A DNA stretch of 60,949 bases, the filler included, from Dimargaris cristalligena (lineage: Eukaryota), in the NCBI GenBank assembly GCA_003614675.1. It is 2 parts of 2 records of this genome, joined end to end, with 100 filler letters (N's around TTAATTAATTAA, not from the genome) between each part and the next. Parts side by side here need not be neighbours in the genome. Positions count along the whole stretch, not along the records: positions 1 to 30,433 come from ML002458.1; 1 more part is not named here. The stretch is one strand, 5' to 3'. Positions 3,811 through 22,696 of this stretch are shown piece by piece. The notes below the pieces were generated by a model. That model did no database searches. It worked only from the letters and a program-made list of their open reading frames with translations, and was not told where the DNA came from. Within the stretch, counting starts at the first letter, position 1, and every line of letters starts with the position of its first letter. The translations under genes were made by a program, and so were the position numbers.

Positions 3811-5309
3811 ATGAGGTTATATTCCGTATATATTGCCTTGATTAGCCTGGTGATAATCAGCTCAACCATTGGGTATCCCCAACCCGGAAATACAGCATCC
3901 AACTTACGGAGTGAATCGGAATTGTATCCAACCGGGCATACCCGAAATGGGGCCTCAACTCACACCGACTCTCACGTCGATTCGGATCTCGATAACGGGT
4001 ATTTGGAAACCATATCCACCGAGGAAGGGTCGAGTGAATGTTTGAAGGTGATTTATGCTCCGCAATTTGAATTCGAAGATATGGTGAGCGAGATGTCTCT
4101 AAGTGAATTCCGAACTATGGTCGAGATTTGTGATAAATACAGTAGCGACGTGTTAAATACCCACCGATTCCAAATACTTATACAGGTTAGTAGGCCAACC
4201 ACCTCATTTATTGATATTCGAAGCGTACCCATATCACTCTGGCACATGCTATCCTTTATTCGCCAGACCCAACAATTAAAGGTGTCTGCTCTACTATACA
4301 TCTGTTCAACGCTTACTTCCCCGTTTTCGGAGTACAGCTGGCTCCTATTCTAGGCGTAAGTGATATCGATGCCCATGTTCTCCGCTCCCTACTTCCCGTA
4401 CACCTCCAAAGCCTGATGCTAATGCACGGATGGATGTACACCCAGCATGAAGTAAGACACGAGTTGGCCTCGATATGTCCCGACGGAAGATGTACGATCC
4501 AGCAACTCGCCGGGTTCCGCGACTCGAGTTTCCATATGAAACGGCTTAGCCACCTTTATCGCGAGATCGCCTACGTCGACTATACCCGGCTCAACGGTGA
4601 CCAGCGACGCGTTCTCTTTCCGCTCGTCGACGCCCTGGCCCAACTGCCCGCCCGCTGGATTCTACAATTATTGGACCGACTCCGGGCCGCCATCACCAAC
4701 CACCCCGGTTTACTTCTGGCGGCGTCGGGGGTCGAGAAAAACGATCCCTTGCTGGGACCCCTGGTGGCCGGTATCCGGGGCGTCGGATCTAAAGCCCTCC
4801 ATGACGGTTTGATCAACGAACTGCTGGTCAGTACCAGTGCCGTCCTAGCGGTCACGGGCCAGTTTCCTAAACTGCAGCAATTGGCCGGGCTTTTAAAGCG
4901 GTGGAACCCCGGACATCCCCTCCCCGGCGCCCATTTCATCGGGTTGCTCGTCTTGGAGTACGGCGGTCCCGCCTTCCGGGACTGGGCCGTGGCCTGGTTG
5001 GGTCGGTTCTCGGGGTCCCGGTACGCTGCCCGGCAATTAGGCTGGGACCAGGCGGCCGGGTGGTTGCCTCCGGACCATCACCCCACCGGGGGGTCAACGG
5101 CGCAGTGGCTCCTCCGGGATTTAACCGCAGCAATGTACGTCTACCCCAGCCGGCATCGCAACGGCGCCGCAGCCCTGTGGATTCGCGTACGCCGATCCCC
5201 CACCCAAGGACTGCTCCGGAAAGATAGTCAACTGTTGTTTGATGACGTTTGGTTTCCCCAGGACAGGGTCCAGTCGTTACTGGATTCGGTAGGACTTATT
5301 CTTCCCTAG
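3811..5309 (+). CDS. Secreted orphan protein with F-box-like motif (~448 aa; exons 3811-4185, 4338-5309)
   Basis: Hydrophobic signal peptide MRLYSVYIALISLVIISSTIG. Phase-0 intron CAG|GTTAGT...TACAG|CTG joins ORF 3811 to the frame of ORF 4416. PQFEFEDMVSEMSLSEFRTMVEICDKY has F-box spacing. Confidence 0.6.
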
Positions 5310-12545: not shown

Positions 12546-12567
12546 GGGAGAAGTTCAATCAAGCTAT
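12546..12567 (-). mobile_element. Truncated MITE terminus interrupted by the LTR retrotransposon
   Basis: ATAT|GGGAGAAGTTCAATCAAGCTAT closely matches the MITE end ATAT|GGGAGAGGTTCAATAAGACTGTATAA at 44610. Confidence 0.55.
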
Positions 12568-12870
12568 TGCAACTGAGGGAGGTCACCATCACCCACCGGC
12601 AGGAGGCCGATCCTCCCCACAGTACCCCTCACCCGAGTGAGGAAGAACCACTAGACGAGGACATGGACTACCCGCTGGAAGAGGGCGCCTCTACCCCAAC
12701 AGCACTAAAACAACACCTCATCTCGGAGGGATAAAACAGACTGGCTGGAGCGGCCGACTATTTACACCTTGTCTTCGAAATAAATACTATACATTTATTA
12801 TCTATCTTCAACTCTTGCCCTACTCGGCGCGCTACTACTTTCCTGCCCTCCTCGGCCTAATCTGGTTACA
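12568..12870 (+). repeat. 5' LTR (303 bp)
   Basis: TGCAAC...GTTACA; direct repeat of 17850-18152. Confidence 0.95.
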
Positions 12871-12874
12871 AACT

Positions 12875-12888
12875 TTTATTTCGAAGAC
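12875..12888 (+). promoter_or_regulatory. Self-complementary primer-binding site (Tf1-type self-priming)
   Basis: TTTATTTCGAAGAC is the exact reverse complement of LTR 12771-12784 GTCTTCGAAATAAA. No TGG tRNA-type PBS follows the LTR. Confidence 0.8.
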
Positions 12889-12902
12889 CTATATATATAA
12901 CC

Positions 12903-13790
12903 ATGTCCTCTACTGATCCGACCCCTCATTCTCCCACCCAAAGCCGACTCAACAACCCCACTTTCTTCCCCCAACATGGCCTCCCCGCTGGAGCGCTAGA
13001 CACCCTGATGAAGAATGTGAAGCCCTTCTCTGGTAAACCACCCGGCCCCACCTGGGATTCTTGGAAACTCTCCCTTAACTCTACCATCAAGGACTACTAC
13101 CCTCAGATGGCCACCGGGGCCCAGTTCCGTCTAACGATTGCTCTCCTACAAGACGATATACGTGACTTGGTAATCAAAGCTGGCAAGGACACCACCGAAC
13201 ACTTTGAGGCCTTTATAAAGACTACCTACCCTAGTTCATTATGGGCGGAATACTACGACATGGCACTACACTCGGGTACCCTCTTCAAGGGAAAGAATAT
13301 CCATATCGCCTGCTCAATCGGCAACGACGCTGCCTGGCAACTGGGAGGTACAAGCCATTGGTGTACCCAGGTTACTAAAGCCCTACTTTCGGAGTTCTGT
13401 GCCCACCTAGAACAAGCACCCCACGAGCTGTGGAATTTCACCGATTATACTGCGGGAAAAATGACTGAACGCTTTAAGGCCATCACCCAGGCAGTACTAG
13501 CCAGTCAGGCCCGTCAGGCTGCCCTCCGAACTGCACCTGGACATGGTCCACCACCCTTGGAAACATGAGAAATCACACACAAGGGTACACAGAACTCCAG
13601 TCCCCCCTCAACTGAGTCCATTGTAGCAGCAGTGCTCGCGGCCATGCAAGAGAAACCCCCGGCTAGTAACACTAAAGGCTATAGCAAGAACCGCCATCGC
13701 AAGGATCATCAGGCCAAGGCAATGGCAGAACTATGGGCCGAAAATGTTCGCCTCCAACAGGCGATGAGTGATAAGTCGGGAAAAGCCTAG
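12903..13790 (+). pseudogene. gag: Retrotransposon gag, interrupted by an in-frame TGA at 13566-13568
   Basis: Capsid-like VKPFSGK..WDSWK motif. The frame stays open for 73 codons after the TGA, up to TAG 13788-13790 just past the slippery site. No CCHC knuckle. Confidence 0.75.
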
Positions 13791-16700
13791 AGGTGGTAGA
13801 GACTCCTCTAATACTAGCGGCAATTATTCCCAATAAACCTAGTATTGATACCTTTACCACCGACAATTTGACATCACATTGGAGACTACTACGTAACGCA
13901 GCCCTGGGCGGAGTCGAGGTCAAGGCTGCAGCGGACCAGGGAGCAGCTACCAGTATTATCACACTAAAAGCAGCTAGCCGCCTATGCCTCAAGGTCAACC
14001 ACCAAGTACGGCCTCACCTACGAGCATTTGGTGGCCATAATTATGCCCCATCCCTCGGCACTGCCCAAGCTCGGTTCTCAACTGCCGAATCTCCCAGGAA
14101 ACAATGGATTAGGTTCACCGTTATTGAGGTAGATGCTGAGATTGATGCTCTAATTGGTCGACATGACTTAGATGCCCTGAATCTGGACCTCCGAACTCCA
14201 CCGGGCCCAGTAACAGCTCCCATTATAGCTACCCCCCCAGAGCTACCAGAACTGCCCAAAGTAACCCAGAGGAAAACCCTGGAACCCAGGGGATTACCTG
14301 CGGGGACCTTCATCCGGACTAACCCAGCTACTGACCAGGAGTTTAAAAGGGCAGATCACCAATACCCCCCTCCAACTAAGGAAAGTATTAAGTCCCGGCT
14401 AAGGGAACAGCTACCCAATGCTGGTGCGAGAAGCCAACTCCTGAGAGAACTCATGACAGGGATACAATCCCTCCGAGAGTACCCTCCAAGTTGCCCACCT
14501 CCCTGCTTACTAAAGCCAATCACGCCACCCCTGAAACCTGACGCGAAACTCCTATATATCCCTCAAGCACCAAGGAGTCAAGCTGACTGGGAATTTATGG
14601 ACCACTATATTAAGACTCGCCTCCAATATGGAGTAGATGAGCCAGGTTTTGCCCATGCTAACCTGCCAGTCTACAGCTTGCCAAAGCCAAATACTGATGC
14701 CCGGCGAGTAATCCTGGATGATAGTCAGGGAAGCACGGTTAACATGCACTCACTGGGAATGCAACTCCCCAAGCTCCATGAGGTTCGCACCTTTGTTCGT
14801 GATGCCCAACTAATTACAAGTATTGACCTAGCCTCATACTTTACACAAATTAGACTGGCAACAGAAGTCCGAGACTTCTGGACCTTTGATGGGGGATCCA
14901 ATGGCCGGGTTCGAGCTACCCGCTTGGTCCAGGGCAATAGCCAAAGCCCCGCTATTGCCCACGCCCTCCTCATGCACGTCTTCAATGGCCTACCAGACCT
15001 GCATGGTTATCTTCTAGGGTATATTGACAATATCTACCTAAAGAGTACCACCGGAAGCATTAAGGATCATATTAGGGACATTGGCAAATTAATCCGGGGC
15101 CTTGCATCATGGGGCTTAACAATCAATATGCCTAAAAGTGAATTCGCCGGCATAGAGAATGTAGAAATCTTGGGTTATCGCTGGTCACAAGATAATTCTT
15201 GGTCTATCCCTGACCATCGGGTGGCTGACCTCCAGCAGCTACCCATGCCACAAACAGTAAAGGAAATACAACACCTAACTGGGGGCATCAATGCCATATC
15301 AGCCCACCTTCCATGGGCAGCAGCACTCCTTGCCCCCTTCTACGCCCTCACTGGATTGCGCCGACTGACCAAGGGACAATTACTTGAACTCCGACCATAC
15401 TGGGAGGGTTTAAAGGAAGCCCTCACTGACACACGATACCTCTATGAGCCAAAGCCTGGTGAGCCCTTAACACTTCGGGTAGATGCCGCAGAGGCAGGCA
15501 TAGGAGCAGTATTATTGGCCCATACTAACAACCAGGAGGACCGTGTTGTAGCCTATTTCAGTAAGGCCTTTGATGGACAACAGGGAAGGAGACACCCTGG
15601 TTTCCGTGAGGCATGGGGACTTGTCCGAGCAGTCCGCCACTTCTATACTTATCTAGATGGTGCAGTTAACCTCCGAATTGAGGTTGATGCTACCACTGCT
15701 TTGGGCCTCTTTAATCATAAAGATACCTGCCAGGCGGATGAGTTAGCAGGCTTCCGTGTGGAACTGGCGAAATTGGGGATTCATTCATATATGATTCATC
15801 ATCGCCCGGGGGAAACTCACCTTACAGCTGACTGGTTGTCCCGAGCACTTCACCGTCAAAGACCCCGCAAGACCACTAAACCAAAGGCCAATACCATTGC
15901 TGCCATCGAGTTACCCCCTAGGGAGAACACCATCAGTAGTGATGGGGGGGAGGCAATAGATATTTCCCTAACCTCCGATGAAGAAGACAACAATCAGCCT
16001 GTGGATACACCAGAACTCCGGGGTGAACCTACTATTAGGGCCGCACTCCCTACCGCGTGGCACTGGGCTATTGTTGCCGAGGACCAAAGGGGCGACCCAC
16101 AACTGGAAACCTGGTATAAATTATGTACCCGTAGGGACTCTGAGATCGGAAAGGAGGACCCCCTGTTTACAGAAGTAAATGGCATGGCTATTCACAACGG
16201 ACTTCTATGTCAACTTACTCCAGGCATACTACCGGGTACAATGGGCAGTTGGATACCCTTAGCCCCAACCTCCATGATGAAAGAATCCATAAAGCGCTGG
16301 CATGAAGAGCTATGTCATCCAGGCCGAGAACGGCTCTTGGCCTTTGCCCAATCCCGCCTATCACATCCGGCTCTCCGGGAAACCATAGATCAACTGACTA
16401 GGACGTGTCATGTTTGCCAAATTAATGCCATAGCTACGATTCGGAATACCCCACGGTCCACTTCTTATGGAGACCGGAAACCCGGGGAACATCTCTACCT
16501 AGACCTAGGCTATATTGGCCAAATTGGTAATGATGAAGAGTCCCAGTTCCTCATCATCGCGGATGCGGCCAGTCGTTTCTATCAGGCAATACCACTGTTA
16601 CAGTCTACAGCCTTGGACATAGTGGAAGGGCTGCGTGACGGGTGGATAGGCACCTTCGGAAAACCCCGCCTAATCACCACAGATAATGGCCCACAGTTTA

Positions 16701-18016
16701 CCGCAGAAATACTCAAAAACTACCTTGAGGATCAGGGGATCCGTCACATATTCTCATCTCGGAGCCACCCCATTTCTGAGCTGGCTGAACGGTACGTTGG
16801 CCTATTGAAGAATTCACTAAGAAAATGTTGGAGTCAACATGGCACTGCCAATGGGTGGATTCGCTACCTCCCCAGGATTACCGCAGCTCATGCAATCATT
16901 CCAGACCCCCACACGGGCATTTCACCATGGATGGCCCTTAAGGGTATCGAATCAACAGTAGATGTATCACAACTATTGCTTCATCCAGAAACTGAAGGAG
17001 GGCTGGAAGAAGTGGCGCGGTGGGCCATCAGTCAGGCAAAGGAGCGGCGCACTCGTGTAAGGAAACATGCCATGGAACAACATAACCAACATGTCACTAG
17101 AAGACAATACCTTGTAGGAGAGTTGGTCACGGTCAAGGTGATACCCAAACCACCCAACTTGGCGAGCCACCCAGAACGAAGAATGGGTCCTTTCCGAGAC
17201 TTAGAGAGAGCGGGACTTGCCTACAGATTAGCTGACCTCGATGGCAACCCCCAGGCCCGAAATGTCCATGGTGATCTCTTACTCCCGTATTATACAAGTA
17301 ACGAGGAGGGGGGAACTCAGCCAGATGGGATGGAGGCTGTTTCAATTGAGCGAGCTCCAATAATACCGACCACCGTTAATGAAAGGCACCAGAGTCATCC
17401 TATCGAAGAAACAAACGAGGTTAATCAATACCACGAAATCGGTGGAGACCAACCCATTGAGGGTGGCGAGACTCAAATTAGGGGGGGCAACGAGGTGAAC
17501 ACATTCCGGACAATAACACAATCCCCGGCAGATTACTCCTGGTGGGGAACTGATAGCGATGGCGATACCAATTCAGAAAGGGAAGAGTATACATGGCCAT
17601 CATCTGAGTTAAACTTGGATTATCTGTCTGATGAAAATCAAGAAGGGTCACTACCTGACGCGCATGCCCAGGGTACCAAGAGGCAAGCTTCACAGTCACC
17701 CCCTCAAACTGAAGCATCACAAATCATCCCCAAAAGGTTACGCATACCTTCCAGCCCTACACTGTTAGCGTTACCTCATCTCCGGGAAAAATTGGAGCAG
17801 GAATCAAATGTCATGAACTCCGAGGACGAGCAGTTGCCCTGGAGTATTGTGCAACCGAGGGAGGTCACCATCACCCACCGGCAGGAGGCCGATCCTCCCC
17901 ACAGTACCCCTCACCCAAGTGAGGAAGAACCACTAGACGAGGACATGGACTACCCGCTGGAAGAGGGCGCCTCTACCCCAACAGCACTAAAACAACACCT
18001 CATCTCGGAGGGATAA
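13775..18016 (+). CDS. pol: Retrotransposon Pol polyprotein (protease, RT, RNase H, integrase); RT catalytic motif reads YIDN
   Basis: PR ADQGA..LIGRHDL; RT SIDLASYFTQI, LVQG, YIDNI; RH VDAAEAGIGAVL, ADWLSR; IN HEELCHPG..CHVC, YLDL, TDNGPQF, LAER, GPF. The ORF ends inside the 3' LTR. Confidence 0.92.
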   Translation, partial: VGKSLEVVETPLILAAIIPNKPSIDTFTTDNLTSHWRLLRNAALGGVEVKAAADQGAATSIITLKAASRLCLKVNHQVRPHLRAFGGHNYAPSLGTAQARFSTAESPRKQWIRFTVIEVDAEIDALIGRHDLDALNLDLRTPPGPVTAPIIATPPELPELPKVTQRKTLEPRGLPAGTFIRTNPATDQEFKRADHQYPPPTKESIKSRLREQLPNAGARSQLLRELMTGIQSLREYPPSCPPPCLLKPITPPLKPDAKLLYIPQAPRSQADWEFMDHYIKTRLQYGVDEPGFAHANLPVYSLPKPNTDARRVILDDSQGSTVNMHSLGMQLPKLHEVRTFVRDAQLITSIDLASYFTQIRLATEVRDFWTFDGGSNGRVRATRLVQGNSQSPAIAHALLMHVFNGLPDLHGYLLGYIDNIYLKSTTGSIKDHIRDIGKLIRGLASWGLTINMPKSEFAGIENVEILGYRWSQDNSWSIPDHRVADLQQLPMPQTVKEIQHLTGGINAISAHLPWAAALLAPFYALTGLRRLTKGQLLELRPYWEGLKEALTDTRYLYEPKPGEPLTLRVDAAEAGIGAVLLAHTNNQEDRVVAYFSKAFDGQQGRRHPGFREAWGLVRAVRHFYTYLDGAVNLRIEVDATTALGLFNHKDTCQADELAGFRVELAKLGIHSYMIHHRPGETHLTADWLSRALHRQRPRKTTKPKANTIAAIELPPRENTISSDGGEAIDISLTSDEEDNNQPVDTPELRGEPTIRAALPTAWHWAIVAEDQRGDPQLETWYKLCTRRDSEIGKEDPLFTEVNGMAIHNGLLCQLTPGILPGTMGSWIPLAPTSMMKESIKRWHEELCHPGRERLLAFAQSRLSHPALRETIDQLTRTCHVCQINAIATIRNTPRSTSYGDRKPGEHLYLDLGYIGQIGNDEESQFLIIADAASRFYQAIPLLQSTALDIVEGLRDGWIGTFGKPRLITTDNGPQFTAEILKNYLEDQGIRHIFSSRSHPISELAERYVGLLKNSLRKCWSQHGTANGWIRYLPRITAAHAIIPDPHTGISPWMALKGIESTVDVSQLLLHPETEGGLEEVARWAISQAKERRTRVRKHAMEQHNQHVTRRQYLVGELVTVKVIPKPPNLASHPERRMGPFRDLERAGLAYRLADLDGNPQARNVHGDLLLPYYTSNEEGGTQPDGMEAVSIERAPIIPTTVNERHQSHPIEETNEVNQYHEIGGDQPIEGGETQIRGGNEVNTFRTITQSPADYSWWGTDSDGDTNSEREEYTWPSSELNLDYLSDENQEGSLPDAHAQGTKRQASQSPPQTEASQIIPKRLRIPSSPTLLALPHLREKLEQESNVMNSEDEQLPWSIVQPREVTITHRQEADPPHSTPHPSEEEPLDEDMDYPLEEGASTPTALKQHLISEG
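13778..13810 (+). promoter_or_regulatory. -1 programmed ribosomal frameshift signal
   Basis: G GGA AAA heptamer in gag phase at 13778-13784. pol is in the -1 frame, open from 13775. Downstream stem TAGAGG (13788-13793) pairs with CCTCTA (13805-13810). Confidence 0.75.
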
Positions 18017-18152
18017 AACAGACTGGCTGGAGCGGCCGACTATTTACACCTTGTCTTCGAAATAAATACTATACATTTATTATCTATCTTCAACTCTTGC
18101 CCTACTCGGCGCGCTACTACTTTCCTGCCCTCCTCGGCCTAATCTGGTTACA
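17850..18152 (+). repeat. 3' LTR (303 bp)
   Basis: Direct repeat of 12568-12870 with 2 transitions; followed by TSD CTAT. Confidence 0.95.
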
Positions 18153-18466
18153 CTATAAGCCCGTCAATGATATTTCCAAAACCATATTTTCCTGTTTCAC
18201 TTTGCTGTATACCTAAAATTCTACTTTATGCAATAGCACAGCATTCACCTATAGAATCAATACCCGATTAAAACAACCGACTTCCTAATTTAACACCGCG
18301 TACTTTGCATGCCAACAATTTAAAGGTACTGATTGTTAAGGAGCCTGCCATTTCCTGCCGAACTACTCTGCTCTTACCATATGAATAATGCAGTCGACTA
18401 ATCTAGCAAGTGTATATAAATATAATTGTGACCGTCGCTTGCCTAGCATCTGGCTTATTCAACAGT

Positions 18467-19684
18467 ATGCCCATCTCTAACAGCACCAGCGGTGGTAGCG
18501 CTATAGAATGTGATTTCCCCGTCGCCGAGGTTCCGGAAAGTGACATTTATCGCCTCAAACTTTATGCCAGGTAGGTTAAATATTATCGTAAGTCCTGGAT
18601 TCGTAATTTTTAGCATCAATAGAATGCTAGGTTTGGATGATGACGACTAGTTGTATATTTACCATGATATTCTCCCCGGATCGGGATTGTAATTACATGG
18701 TACACTATTCCAGTTTCTAATACAATGCACTTTGGTGATTATATTCTTATTTAGCCTGGCTGCCTTGTCTTACCGAACCGTTTCAAAGTGGCAATGTCAG
18801 GAATGTGATAGAATCACTAATTCGGTAATGGTGAAGCGGTTTGCGACCAAGTACCAGCGCACCGTGGGCTATGTGGCCATCAATCACGATTTGCAATCGG
18901 TTAGCCTCGTTTTTCGCGGCACCCTCGATATTGCCCAAGTTCTAACCGATGTAAAGTTTAAAATGAAGCGATGGCCTAAATGGGTTCATAAGAGCCGCGT
19001 CCATGCCAGGTTTCTAGAGTCCTACTGGGAAGTTAGCGATTGTCTATTTAAGAAGATTGTGGAGCTGCTTCTCAAGTATCCAGAGTATCACTTAACTATT
19101 TCCGGCCATTCATTGGGTGCAGGTAAGCCGAAACTCATACCCTCACGACCCATTTTCGCGGTTTGCCCTACAGCAGAGGTTGCCAAGGTAGCATAGACAT
19201 ATCCATATAATGTTCGCCACTCATGGTTTCTAGTAAGTGCGGTTTGTCTAATTATTTTTCGGATCAATCTTCCACATTTATAATCATATGCTATTTATAT
19301 ATCTGTGTGTTTCTTTAGCCCTTGCCTCCATTGCTGCTGTCGATTTTATCCACCGAAACCAATGCTTGGCCGAAAAAGTACGTGTGGTGACTTTTGGTAA
19401 ACCCCGGGTTGGCAATGAAGCCTACATCCAGCACTACAACTCACTGGACCTCGATAGTTTTTCGGTGGTTAACAAGAATGACGTTGTACCTCACTTGCCG
19501 CCGCGTTTGCTAGGGTACCGGCACGAGAGTGGCGAGGTCTGGATCAAACCGAATTGTAGCGATTACGAGACGTTTTTTTTACCCCCAGGTGGATAATCGG
19601 CCCAATCCGGCCAGCATCCTAAGTGTGAAACCGAAAAATCCCAGCGTTAAGGACCACCACTGGGTCTGGGATGTAGAAATGTGA
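18467..19684 (+). pseudogene. Class-3 lipase copy 1, frameshifted at a T8 run (exons 18467-18570, 18755-19122, 19319-19684)
   Basis: LVFRGT, VHARF, GHSLG, TFGKPRVGN, DVVPHLPP. The paralogous C-terminus YPQVDNRPNP..KDHHWVWDVEM* lies out of frame after T8 at 19573-19580. Confidence 0.8.
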
Positions 19685-19831
19685 GCCTGCTATCCTACTG
19701 TGGAATAGCCATTGGCGAAAATTAACCTAACCAACTAAAATTCTTGGTACAGTCACATTAAGATTCCATAAATTGCTCCAATTAGTATGGCTAATGCTAT
19801 AGGTAAAATAATAGTTCTTTCATATTGATAT

Positions 19832-19967
19832 GGGCGATACTCGGCCCAGCTGTATAGAGATTTAAATGATAAGTGCACGAGAAAATGGGTGAGTGATCCA
19901 TTTCTAGCCAGTAGTATTTTCCTCATCTAATGGATTTTTCGTTATACAGCCTGGTTGAGCCTCTCCC
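19832..19967 (+). mobile_element. 136-bp MITE, copy 1
   Basis: GGG...CCC termini, ~25-bp imperfect TIRs, ATAT on both flanks. Confidence 0.8.
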
Positions 19968-20781
19968 ATATTGAGCAGGCTCTAGGTCTGCTAGCACTGG
20001 TTTTATTTGTTGTGGATGGTTATAGGCCATATTCGTCACCTCAGGATGGTTATCATATTCTGGCCTCATTTTTTCTTTCAATGCAGGTGTGGGTTTGGTT
20101 TTTCGTTTTGATGCCAGTATATCACCCAGGCTATCCAATACACAATTGGCTAGTAAATTATCGCCCATCCACTTAGCTAAAGAAATTGTTACAAATCACA
20201 AATATATAAATTAAATGTTCCTATCCTAGTCTTGGGTTTTGCATTTATAGTTAGGGCATGGTGATGGCTTTCAGGGCATAGTACTCAGATGAAACCGCCT
20301 GTTTTCTGAAGAAAAACTTGGTCTAAAGACCAATTAGCCAGTTAGAATGCTGCGCCGCTTATGATTGATCGCAATCAGACCTGTGTGTTTCAGATTGGAT
20401 CAGGCGATCTCAGCCCCCCAATGTTTACTGGGCATGCGTGAAAGAAAACGGCGTATCGATAATTGAACTATCCTTGCCTCAACTAACCACTTCCAATTAC
20501 ATTACCCATTACCCATTTCACATTGTTATTTTATTTTTAAGAGAGGGCTAACTTCCTCCATTCTTACCACTTATGAGCTTTCATCACTTCATTTTAAATA
20601 ATGTACTGATTCGCATTTTAAGCACCCTCTAACAAAGCACCGGTTATTTTCGCATAAGACATGCCATTTAAACCCCCCAATTCTTAATTTATTTTCGGAT
20701 AGTCCAACTCTTTTATTTGCTGTAGAATCGGTAGCCCTAAATTGGCGGAAAGATATCAAGCGCGCAATCTTAATCATTGGT

Positions 20782-22066
20782 ATGGCTCCGTCTATCAACG
20801 TCATTCCTCATATGGTAGGCAGATTTCCGGTCGCTGAAGTTCCCGAATGCGATATCCAGCGCCTCCGACTTTACGCCAGGTAGGGAAAAAATGTATTAAA
20901 CTAATCATTACCAAAAAACCGTAAATACTGTAGTTGGGGTGAATGGCCACCAGATGCGATCCAAAAGTTGTTATCATATAGTTTACCAGATCCGACACTG
21001 ACCTTGTTTCGATGGTTCGCTGTTTCCATCCCTTCCGTCCCTTTGACTTACAACGAGTATGTCTATCCAGTTTGGCCGCCATCTCATACCGAGCAGTTGC
21101 GCAATGGAACCATAGGGAATTTGATAAAATTACTAATTCGCAGATGGTAAGGCGTTTTGCATCCAAATACCAGCGCACCGTGGGCTATGTGGCCATCAAT
21201 CACGATTTAACATCGGTTTGTTTAGTTTTTCGTGGCACCACCGATATTGCTGAAGCCCTCACTGACATGAAATTCCTGATGAAGCGCTGGCCTAAATGGG
21301 TCAAGAACAGCCACGTTCATGCCGGATTTCTGGATTCATTTGATGATGTCGGCAATCGCCTGTATTGCAAAATCCGGGAATTGCTTCACATGTACCCCGA
21401 GTATCACTTAACTATAGTTGGCCATTCCATGGGAGCAGGTAAGTCAAACAGCCGCAAAATACGATCAGTTGAGTTATTAGGGCCGCCTTGCGCCTGAATC
21501 AAAGGAACCATATAATTTTACACGCCCCTACCCGGCAAATCAATCGAATCACCGAGGAGCTTAATGGAACATGTGTGCCCATCCTCTGTGGAGGAATACC
21601 CACCCCACACAGCCCTACCTTTGGATGCTGATTATTGAGATAGGGAACTAATGAATCGTGGTACCTACTATGTTTGCTCCTGTTTACAAAATCTCGCGTA
21701 GCCATAGCGTCTATAACAGCTGTTGATTTTGTCCATCGAAACCAGCATCTGGCCCATAAAGTACGCGTGGTGACGTTTGGTAAACCACGCGTCGGCAACC
21801 AGCCTTACATTGAACACTACAACTCGCTGAATCTCGACAGTCTATCTGTAGTTAACCAAAACGACGTCGTGCCCCATTTGCCACCGCGTTTGATAGGCTA
21901 CCGCCACGAAGATGGCGAAGTTTGGATCAAACCAGGCGAAAGTGGTCGCAAGGCGACTTACTACCCCCAAGTTGACAACAAGCCCAACCCGCATGGATTT
22001 CTAAGTGTGAAGCCTCGCGATTTTACTACCAAGGACCACCATTGGGTTTGGGATGTTGAAATGTAG
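20782..22066 (+). CDS. Class-3 lipase copy 2 (exons 20782-20879, 21071-21438, 21702-22066)
   Basis: LVFRGT, VHAGF, GHSMG nucleophile elbow, TFGKPRVGN, DVVPHLPP, C-terminal DH. Same intron positions as copy 1. Confidence 0.88.
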
Positions 22067-22380
22067 AACAGTTGGCCCATATTATATGCATTGTTCCAAA
22101 TATAGTTTATTGGTGAAGGGGCCCATTCAAGGTACTACTTAATAAATAAAGCTTATATTGCAATTGAAATCCTGGCAAATGGTGAAGTACTGGATTATAT
22201 CTCTCTTTAGAGGTGTCTTTGAGTTACAATTTGATTAAGTACATTTACTATACCTAATTCCAGGTGACAAACGCCCCTCTTCCCCAAGGGTTACTGATAG
22301 ATCTTGCACCACGTCCTCTTACTGGCCTTATCTCTGGCTTTTGGGTAGACAAGGTCAGTAACTATATTAACTCTTAATAT

Positions 22381-22516
22381 GGGTGAAATTCGACCCAACT
22401 GTATAAGCGTTTAAATGGTAGGCATATGAGGAAATGTGCGGGAGATTCATTATTAACCAATACTATTTGCCTCATCCAACGGATTTTATGTTATACAGCC
22501 TGGTTGAATCTTTCCC
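22381..22516 (+). mobile_element. 136-bp MITE, copy 2
   Basis: Collinear with 19832-19967; GGG...CCC; ATAT on both flanks. Confidence 0.8.
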
Positions 22517-22696
22517 ATATCCTTACCAAGCGATCCACTGCTAAGTCGTAACATCCACTAATGGCTAACTTTAATTATACAGATATTTTGGACAGTGGTA
22601 TGAGTATGTGAATAAATATGTAGCGTTTTTTTTAGAAAAAAAACCTCAAACACCCTTTGAGGGATAAAAGCGTAGATTAGCCAATACCCATCTGAC

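Follow-up and report, generated by a model that had tools for sequence, protein, structure and literature searches.

Self-priming, in which the RNA of a long terminal repeat (LTR) retrotransposon folds back on its primer-binding site (PBS) and itself supplies the primer for reverse transcription, is established for Tf1, a proposed mechanism in Tf2, Tj1, sushi and Tcn1, and a predicted one in the plant Tcn1 clade and in copia TAR elements, according to passages of three studies (PMC7175516, PMC4600332, PMC6317226). Priming of Tf1 involves pairing of the PBS with the first 11 nucleotides (nt) of the RNA, which RNase H then cuts between nt 11 and 12 (as described in a passage of PMC7175516), and for Tj1 a passage of PMC4600332 reports a segment within the LTR that complements the PBS and proposes self-priming. 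Chromoviruses of the Tcn1 clade and copia TAR elements are those for which a passage of PMC6317226 predicts the same mechanism. Here we analyse a complete LTR retrotransposon of the Ty3/gypsy type at positions 12568–18152 (5585 base pairs, bp) of a 60,949-nt stretch of DNA from the fungus Dimargaris cristalligena (GenBank assembly GCA_003614675.1). The whole stretch, called the window throughout, consists of two parts of the genome joined with filler between them, positions 1 to 30,433 coming from record ML002458.1; all stranded features of the element lie on the plus strand. Just downstream of its 5' LTR the element carries a PBS that is the exact reverse complement of a segment of that LTR and, as far as sequence can tell, Tf1-type self-priming appears to be the best explanation of this arrangement, with a probability that we put at roughly 0.8.

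The element shares with Tf1, Tf2 and Tj1 the pol order protease (PR), reverse transcriptase (RT), RNase H, integrase (IN), and it departs from them in several respects. Its complementary arm measures 14 nt, and those of the relatives described below 13–16 nt, compared with 11 nt in Tf1. Unlike Tf1, Tf2 and Tj1, it has a 4-nt spacer between LTR and PBS and an RT motif C that reads YIDN, and unlike the Tf1/sushi chromoviruses it has no chromodomain that Pfam detects. Tf1 consists of a single open reading frame and has a target-site duplication (TSD) of 5 bp, whereas the TSD of the window element is 4 bp. The gag of Tj1 ends in a stop codon (as stated in a passage of PMC4600332), where the window element apparently uses a −1 frameshift instead. 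For the Tcn1 clade (Cryptococcus, mosses, lycophytes) and vertebrate sushi, passages of PMC7175516 and PMC6317226 present self-priming as inferred from LTR/PBS complementarity alone, which is the same kind of evidence as is offered here; unlike the lineage of the window element, Tcn1 and sushi bear a chromodomain and are related to Tf1/sushi. For SM-Tcn1, one study found support for neither transfer RNA (tRNA) priming nor self-priming, in the passage that concerns it (PMC2864245). The plant Ty1/copia TAR lineage (Houba, Osr-1) is also predicted to self-prime, so that the mechanism extends beyond a single superfamily (passages of PMC6317226), although TAR elements differ from the window element in having the copia domain order and in belonging to another superfamily and another host kingdom. 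Among the titles, abstracts and passages listed by our literature searches, none deals with self-priming or LTR/PBS structure in elements of Kickxellomycotina.

Results

The 5' LTR (12568–12870; 303 nt, TG...CA) is followed by the 4-nt spacer AACT (12871–12874) and then by the PBS TTTATTTCGAAGAC (12875–12888), which is complementary at 14 of 14 positions to the LTR segment GTCTTCGAAATAAA (12771–12784). As the putative self-primer, this segment would make up nt 1–14 of the transcript. On neither side does the match run on beyond these 14 nt, and the PBS likewise complements the copy of the 14-mer at 18053–18066 in the 3' LTR (17850–18152), itself 303 nt long with TG...CA ends and a direct repeat of the 5' LTR. 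With the 32 nt between LTR and gag ATG as the target, none of 5000 shuffled LTRs gave a complement of 14 nt (maximum 11), nor did any of 2000 in a second run (maximum 12). Real sequence served as a further control, and 0/1484 segments of 32 nt from the rest of the window reached 14 nt (maximum 12). With up to two mismatches allowed, the 14-nt pattern occurs four times in the window versus 0.44 expected. No TGG was found by a motif check of the 25 nt 3' of the 5' LTR, and a tRNA scan of the window returned 0 tRNA genes.

The start of the complementary arm sets the presumed boundary between U3 (12568–12770) and R-U5 (12771–12870). A TATA-like GATAAAA lies at 12730–12736, 35–41 nt upstream of 12771, the probable start of transcription, and a pyrimidine run directly precedes the arm both here and in one of the distant relatives (L002, below). 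In the predicted minimum-energy fold of the RNA the pairing of arm and PBS forms the closing helix. A reading of this DNA made without any searches (hereafter the sequence-only reading) had reported the exact 14-nt complement, the AACT spacer followed by a PBS that is not of the TGG type, and the GATAAAA upstream of 12771, and all three hold. It had also cited a second pairing, 7 of 8 positions, between the LTR end (12863–12870) and 12896–12903. This pairing exists in the sequence but lies outside the predicted minimum-energy fold and has no clear counterpart by eye in the relatives (L002), and we do not retain it as evidence. The proposed primer arm contains an AATAAA at 12779–12784. At the same place AATAAAT (12779–12785) and ATTTATT (12793–12799) form a perfect inverted repeat of 7 bp that encloses a 7-nt loop, and a hairpin at 12779–12799 would take in the poly(A) signal together with the 3' end of the proposed primer.

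A metagenome scan with a four-row alignment as query recovered four loci that represent two elements (L001/L002 and L003/L004), and a scan of viral contigs found no relative of the element. L003/L004 come from an AT-rich organism and share 31–32% pol identity with the window element. The LTR end of L003 was fixed by comparing the 3' LTR with the flank, and directly after the LTR of L003/L004 (0-nt spacer) stands TATTTGAGAGCTT, 13 nt that exactly complement a site in their own LTR. In L003 the complement extends to 16 nt, a length equalled by 0/2000 shuffles; the 13 nt of L004 are equalled by 29/2000, because the region is AT-rich. The other element, L001/L002, is a single GC-rich unit of 4708 nt with 29% identity to the window element. 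The PBS of L002, 13 nt long, lies 2–3 nt past the inferred LTR end, overlaps the gag ATG and is the exact complement of L002 3288–3300. Within the 800 nt searched no second inverted pair of 13 nt occurs, 0/2000 shuffles equal this one, and a TATA-like motif stands ~30–36 nt upstream of the arm.

Complementarity is kept across these relatives (16 nt in L003, 13 nt in L004 and 13 nt in L002) while the sequences change: the PBS sequences of the window element, L002 and L003/L004 are mutually unrelated, and each complements its own LTR. Three unrelated PBS sequences are expected for self-priming and not for priming by a conserved tRNA, and the covariation of arm and PBS, which the sequence-only reading had named as a check to make in related elements, is of the kind that self-priming predicts. 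When the inferred 5' leader RNAs are folded, the helix between the 5' end and the PBS is the closing stem in three of three lineages, with z-scores of −4.4, −3.6 and −2.6 and with 0, 0 and 4 of 200 shuffles folding as well.

Some features of the metagenome assemblies may be recorded here. Immediately before the arm (L003 ~4408–4438), part of the PBS sequence of L003/L004 is repeated within their LTR, so that the arm could also form a local hairpin within the LTR. Positions 437–677 of L004 are roughly equal to 4953–5193, as in a contig that holds more than one unit or represents a circle with a single LTR, and L001/L002 is a one-LTR circular assembly in which positions 1–123 equal 4709–4831.

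Copies in the same genome were read from the assembled contigs of four DNA runs from two studies; these contigs break inside the LTR. They hold further copies of the element and related families. One such family, ~80% identical to the window element, shows 102–103 differences from it over 12864–13396. In the partial list of these differences the first are at 12901/12902, so that 12864–12900, a stretch comprising the PBS, the spacer and the final 7 nt of the LTR, appears unchanged; the chance of 37 unchanged positions at that divergence is ~2e-4, and the apparent constancy counts in favour of self-priming. An independent contig (X2 record 11) covers 12657–13400 with 0 differences from the window. 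Save for the window's own copy, no contig among those listed spans both the arm and the PBS.

The element, an LTR retrotransposon of the Ty3/gypsy type in a Kickxellomycotina fungus, appears to have been active recently, since its two LTRs differ at only 2/303 positions (12574 and 12635) and other copies and related families occur in the four DNA runs. It is flanked by the 4-bp TSD CTAT (12564–12567 on the left and 18153–18156 on the right), and the TG...CA LTRs, the short TSD and the pol order PR-RT-RNase H-IN are those of Ty3/gypsy elements (Metaviridae). No polypurine tract abuts the 3' LTR: the adjoining 12 nt contain six purines, and the nearest purine-rich box (10/12) is at 17822–17833, 16 nt upstream of that LTR.

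The gag frame runs from the ATG at 12903 to the TAG at 13788–13790 (12903–13790), and a Pfam search of it gave no family. One codon before the gag TAG stands the slippery heptamer G GGA AAA (13778–13784), the likely site of a −1 gag-pol frameshift, and the pol frame (13775–18016, 1413 codons) is −1 relative to gag. The frame of pol is −1 in all three lineages and the slip sites differ, L003 (906–912) and L002 (~4066–4072) having T TTT TA(A/G) with a Phe codon immediately preceding the gag stop. A single in-frame TGA interrupts gag at 13566–13568, 73 codons upstream of the frameshift site. This codon may be read through, or it may be a nonsense mutation of this copy. The only gag-matching protein among the relatives (P0053, 39% identity) ends before the TGA.

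Within pol, an aspartic protease region (13898–14158) carries DQGA from 13934 and matches Asp_protease_2 with an E value of 0.011, below the Pfam cut-off. It is followed by the reverse transcriptase (RVT_1, 14726–15181; motif C at 15020–15031, YIDN and not YxDD), RNase H (RT_RNaseH_2/RT_RNaseH, 15404–15724) and the integrase (16265–16771), which comprises an H2C2 zinc domain (16265–16426) and the catalytic core rve (16475–16771). After the integrase core pol continues for 413 residues, an acidic, Ser/Pro-rich tail in which Pfam at E ≤ 1 finds neither a chromodomain nor any other family; Pfam likewise finds no chromodomain in the related proteins P0031 and P0032 or in the pol of L003. The pol frame extends 167 nt into the 3' LTR (17850–18016, equivalent to 12568–12734) and its stop TAA (18014–18016) sits within the 3' LTR copy of GATAAAA, so that U3 is almost entirely coding. 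This U3-encoded tail is kept in the D. cristalligena protein P0026 (75% identity). The 4-bp TSD, the −1 frameshift, the want of a clear chromodomain and the want of a polypurine tract had each been noted in the sequence-only reading, and our analysis bears them out, the frameshift through the arrangement of the frames and the G GGA AAA site.

The region around the element is gene-dense and ordinary for a fungus, and a Plus-3 (Rtf1-like) gene lies 137 nt upstream of the element. Just downstream of the element are two pairs of direct repeats (18748–19047 with 21064–21363, and 19825–19971 with 22374–22520) that are 73–76% identical and spaced 2.3–2.5 kb apart, and that may stem from a tandem duplication which has since diverged. 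The filler that joins the two parts of the window includes two runs of 44 N (30434–30477 and 30490–30533).

An exhaustive protein search returned 31805 relatives of the RT/IN region at E ≤ 0.001, few of them close. Identity to the window pol is 75% within D. cristalligena, 53% in D. verticillata, 44–52% in Coemansia reversa, 33% in Ramicandelaber brevisporus and ~31% in metagenome proteins; all others, many of them from arthropods, fall at ~23–30%. Protein atlas matches were to generic RT/IN clusters only. The YIDN of the window RT departs from the Y/F-x-D-D form, and motif C reads Y[IV]DN in the window element, in P0027, P0028, P0031 and P0032, and in the pol of L001 and L003. Among 182 sequences (the protein relatives plus the translated window, L001 and L003 pol), 27 have D-N at this column.

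In a FastTree phylogeny (80 rows, 691 columns) the 12 D-N rows included form one clade with support 1.0. A quick IQ-TREE PMSF tree (41 rows, 715 columns), which comes from a short search and has long branches and some rows of unusual composition, also unites the 10 D-N rows included (SH-aLRT 100, starred; stem length 1.27), with Kickxellomycotina (99) and metagenome (100) subclades. P0113 (YFDN) is an exception and is placed elsewhere in the tree. The sister group consists of two Logan proteins with YVDD/FVDD (support 93, not starred). Four fungal chromoviruses (P0297, P0199, P0020, P0311) form a clade supported at 100 on the opposite side of the tree from the D-N clade, and the branches that separate the two have supports of 85–93, not starred. 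Three of these chromovirus rows are named, as Berkeleyomyces, Lyophyllum (with the automatic name 'Tf2-like') and Mycena. A search from the chromodomain-bearing P0020 returned basidiomycete chromoviruses with automatic 'Tf2-like' names, and among its 120 matches listed none is named as an S. pombe or sushi sequence. Both trees were built without authentic Tf1, Tf2, sushi or Tcn1 sequences; judged on these data, the lineage is distinct and apparently devoid of a chromodomain, and its separation is from the sampled fungal chromoviruses only. The sequence-only reading had suggested that the lineage may be undescribed, a suggestion that gains support from the separate and strongly supported clade.

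Since YVDN hinted at an affinity to BEL/Pao elements, we considered such a placement and dismissed it, as Pfam matched RT_RNaseH_2, Integrase_H2C2 and rve, taken here to be domains of the Ty3/gypsy type, and no other family. The same replacement of the second Asp of YxDD by Asn, giving YVDN, is described for the nematode BEL/Pao elements Cer7–Cer12 and for Atlas virus (passages of PMC554778 and PMC9094657). Those elements, unlike the window lineage with its Ty3/gypsy-type RNase H and integrase, belong to Belpaoviridae, and the difference in family indicates that the substitution arose in parallel and not by descent. Among the literature matches listed there is no case of YxDN in Ty3/gypsy.

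Discussion

The inference of self-priming, made already in the sequence-only reading, is supported by three divergent lineages that each have their own complementary pair, by a closing helix in all three and by a TATA-like motif that precedes the arm by 30–41 nt in the window element and L002. From the anatomy of the element, the complementarity and its statistics, its recurrence and the predicted fold, we infer a start of transcription, a cleavage and a priming step of the Tf1 type, and a rewriting of the PBS. Transcription would start at or very near 12771, ~35–40 nt downstream of GATAAAA. The first 14 nt of the RNA would then fold onto the PBS (12875–12888), the remainder of R and U5 being looped out, and the RNase H of the element would cut past the paired stretch. 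From the freed 3' OH, synthesis would proceed across the 4-nt spacer, U5 and R, and the product would transfer to the 3' R. In this scheme R would contain the AATAAA at 12779–12784 and U5 would end at 12870. Synthesis of the plus strand would copy the primer again, as in the general inheritance of the PBS in retroviruses, and would thus, cycle by cycle, rewrite the PBS from the 5' end of R. Because of such rewriting the arms would stay perfectly matched and would drift together between lineages, and the perfect match within each lineage, combined with complete difference between lineages, fits this expectation.

Several observations weigh against this account. In L003/L004 only ~50 nt of LTR precede the arm, which makes for a very short U3, and the LTR boundaries of L001/L002 are derived from a one-LTR circle and not defined by flanks. 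The distance of the PBS from the LTR end varies, from 4 nt in the window element to 0 nt in L003/L004 and 2–3 nt in L002. A 4-nt spacer would give minus-strand DNA with 4 extra nt beyond the terminal CA for integrase to remove, which is longer than the overhang of 2 nt usually removed in retroviruses. In the same genome, a variant LTR differs from that of the window element at 20 positions, among them 12777 within the arm, where T replaces G. This variant, a 3' or solo LTR, is found in one contig in each of two of the four runs (X2 and X3), and its pair would be broken if its element keeps C at 12882.

A different account accepts the helix between arm and PBS as a selected RNA structure but gives it another role, with priming left to a host RNA such as a tRNA fragment. 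Candidate roles are a leader fold for packaging or dimerisation, control of gag translation, and circularisation of the RNA between its 5' and 3' ends, for which the 5'-3' complementary sequences of Ty1 are a model. The 14-mer is present in the 3' R as well (18053–18066), which would allow a 5'-3' interaction, and in L002 the helix would, through the overlap of PBS and gag ATG, mask the start codon as well. However, the downstream arm stands exactly where a PBS must be, 0–4 nt after U5, in all three lineages; there is no other candidate for a PBS and no TGG after the LTR; and the upstream arm lies at a distance from the TATA-like motif that suits a promoter. A conserved host primer should, moreover, keep the PBS alike, whereas the three sequences differ completely. 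We therefore consider this account improbable, although it deserves more weight than the two that follow.

Priming could also occur in trans, with the 5' end or a fragment of the transcript of another copy annealing to the PBS. With many copies in the genome, and with at least one diverged family whose PBS region is apparently the same, a common pool of primers is conceivable, and cis and trans pairing look the same in sequence. Nothing specifically favours trans, though: the intramolecular helix is the closing stem of the predicted minimum-energy fold, and in Tf1 the pairing is described as occurring within the RNA and being followed by RNase H cleavage (passage of PMC7175516), and we rate priming in trans as very unlikely. 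That the complementarity is a functionless coincidence or an artefact of assembly is effectively refuted, given that no shuffle in 5000 and no control segment in 1484 reached 14 nt, that the independent contig over the same stretch shows no differences, and that the arrangement recurs in two unrelated metagenome elements.

How far the element's lineage stands from known self-priming retrotransposons is a question on which we are more tentative. The lineage may be a deep and so far unrecognised branch of Ty3/gypsy that is present in Kickxellomycotina and soil eukaryotes, lies outside the Tf1/sushi/Tcn1 chromoviruses and is self-priming throughout, a reading that we hold at somewhat short of even odds. 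Taken jointly with it, and at the same tentative level, the marks of such a lineage would be an RT with Y[IV]DN, the lack of a chromodomain, the use of a −1 frameshift, and extension of the pol frame into or up to the LTR.

The mechanism itself is already known, as self-priming is established for Tf1 and proposed or predicted elsewhere; the apparent novelty lies in the lineage concerned. Self-priming makes a retrotransposon independent of host tRNAs and, as presented in passages of PMC6317226, PMC4600332 and PMC7175516, has so far been tied almost entirely to Tf1/sushi-type chromoviruses, together with predictions for the Tcn1 clade and for one plant copia lineage. Annotation pipelines that look for a PBS of the tRNA type would find none in elements such as this one. 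The RT offers a second natural experiment, in that it has Asn in place of the second Asp of its motif, yet the element appears to have been active recently. A third, well-separated lineage with three divergent members would be a natural covariation set for the pair of primer and PBS, and would show how readily self-priming arises or persists. If the reading of a deep lineage is true, fold-back self-priming arose at least twice in Ty3/gypsy, or else it predates the radiation of the chromoviruses.

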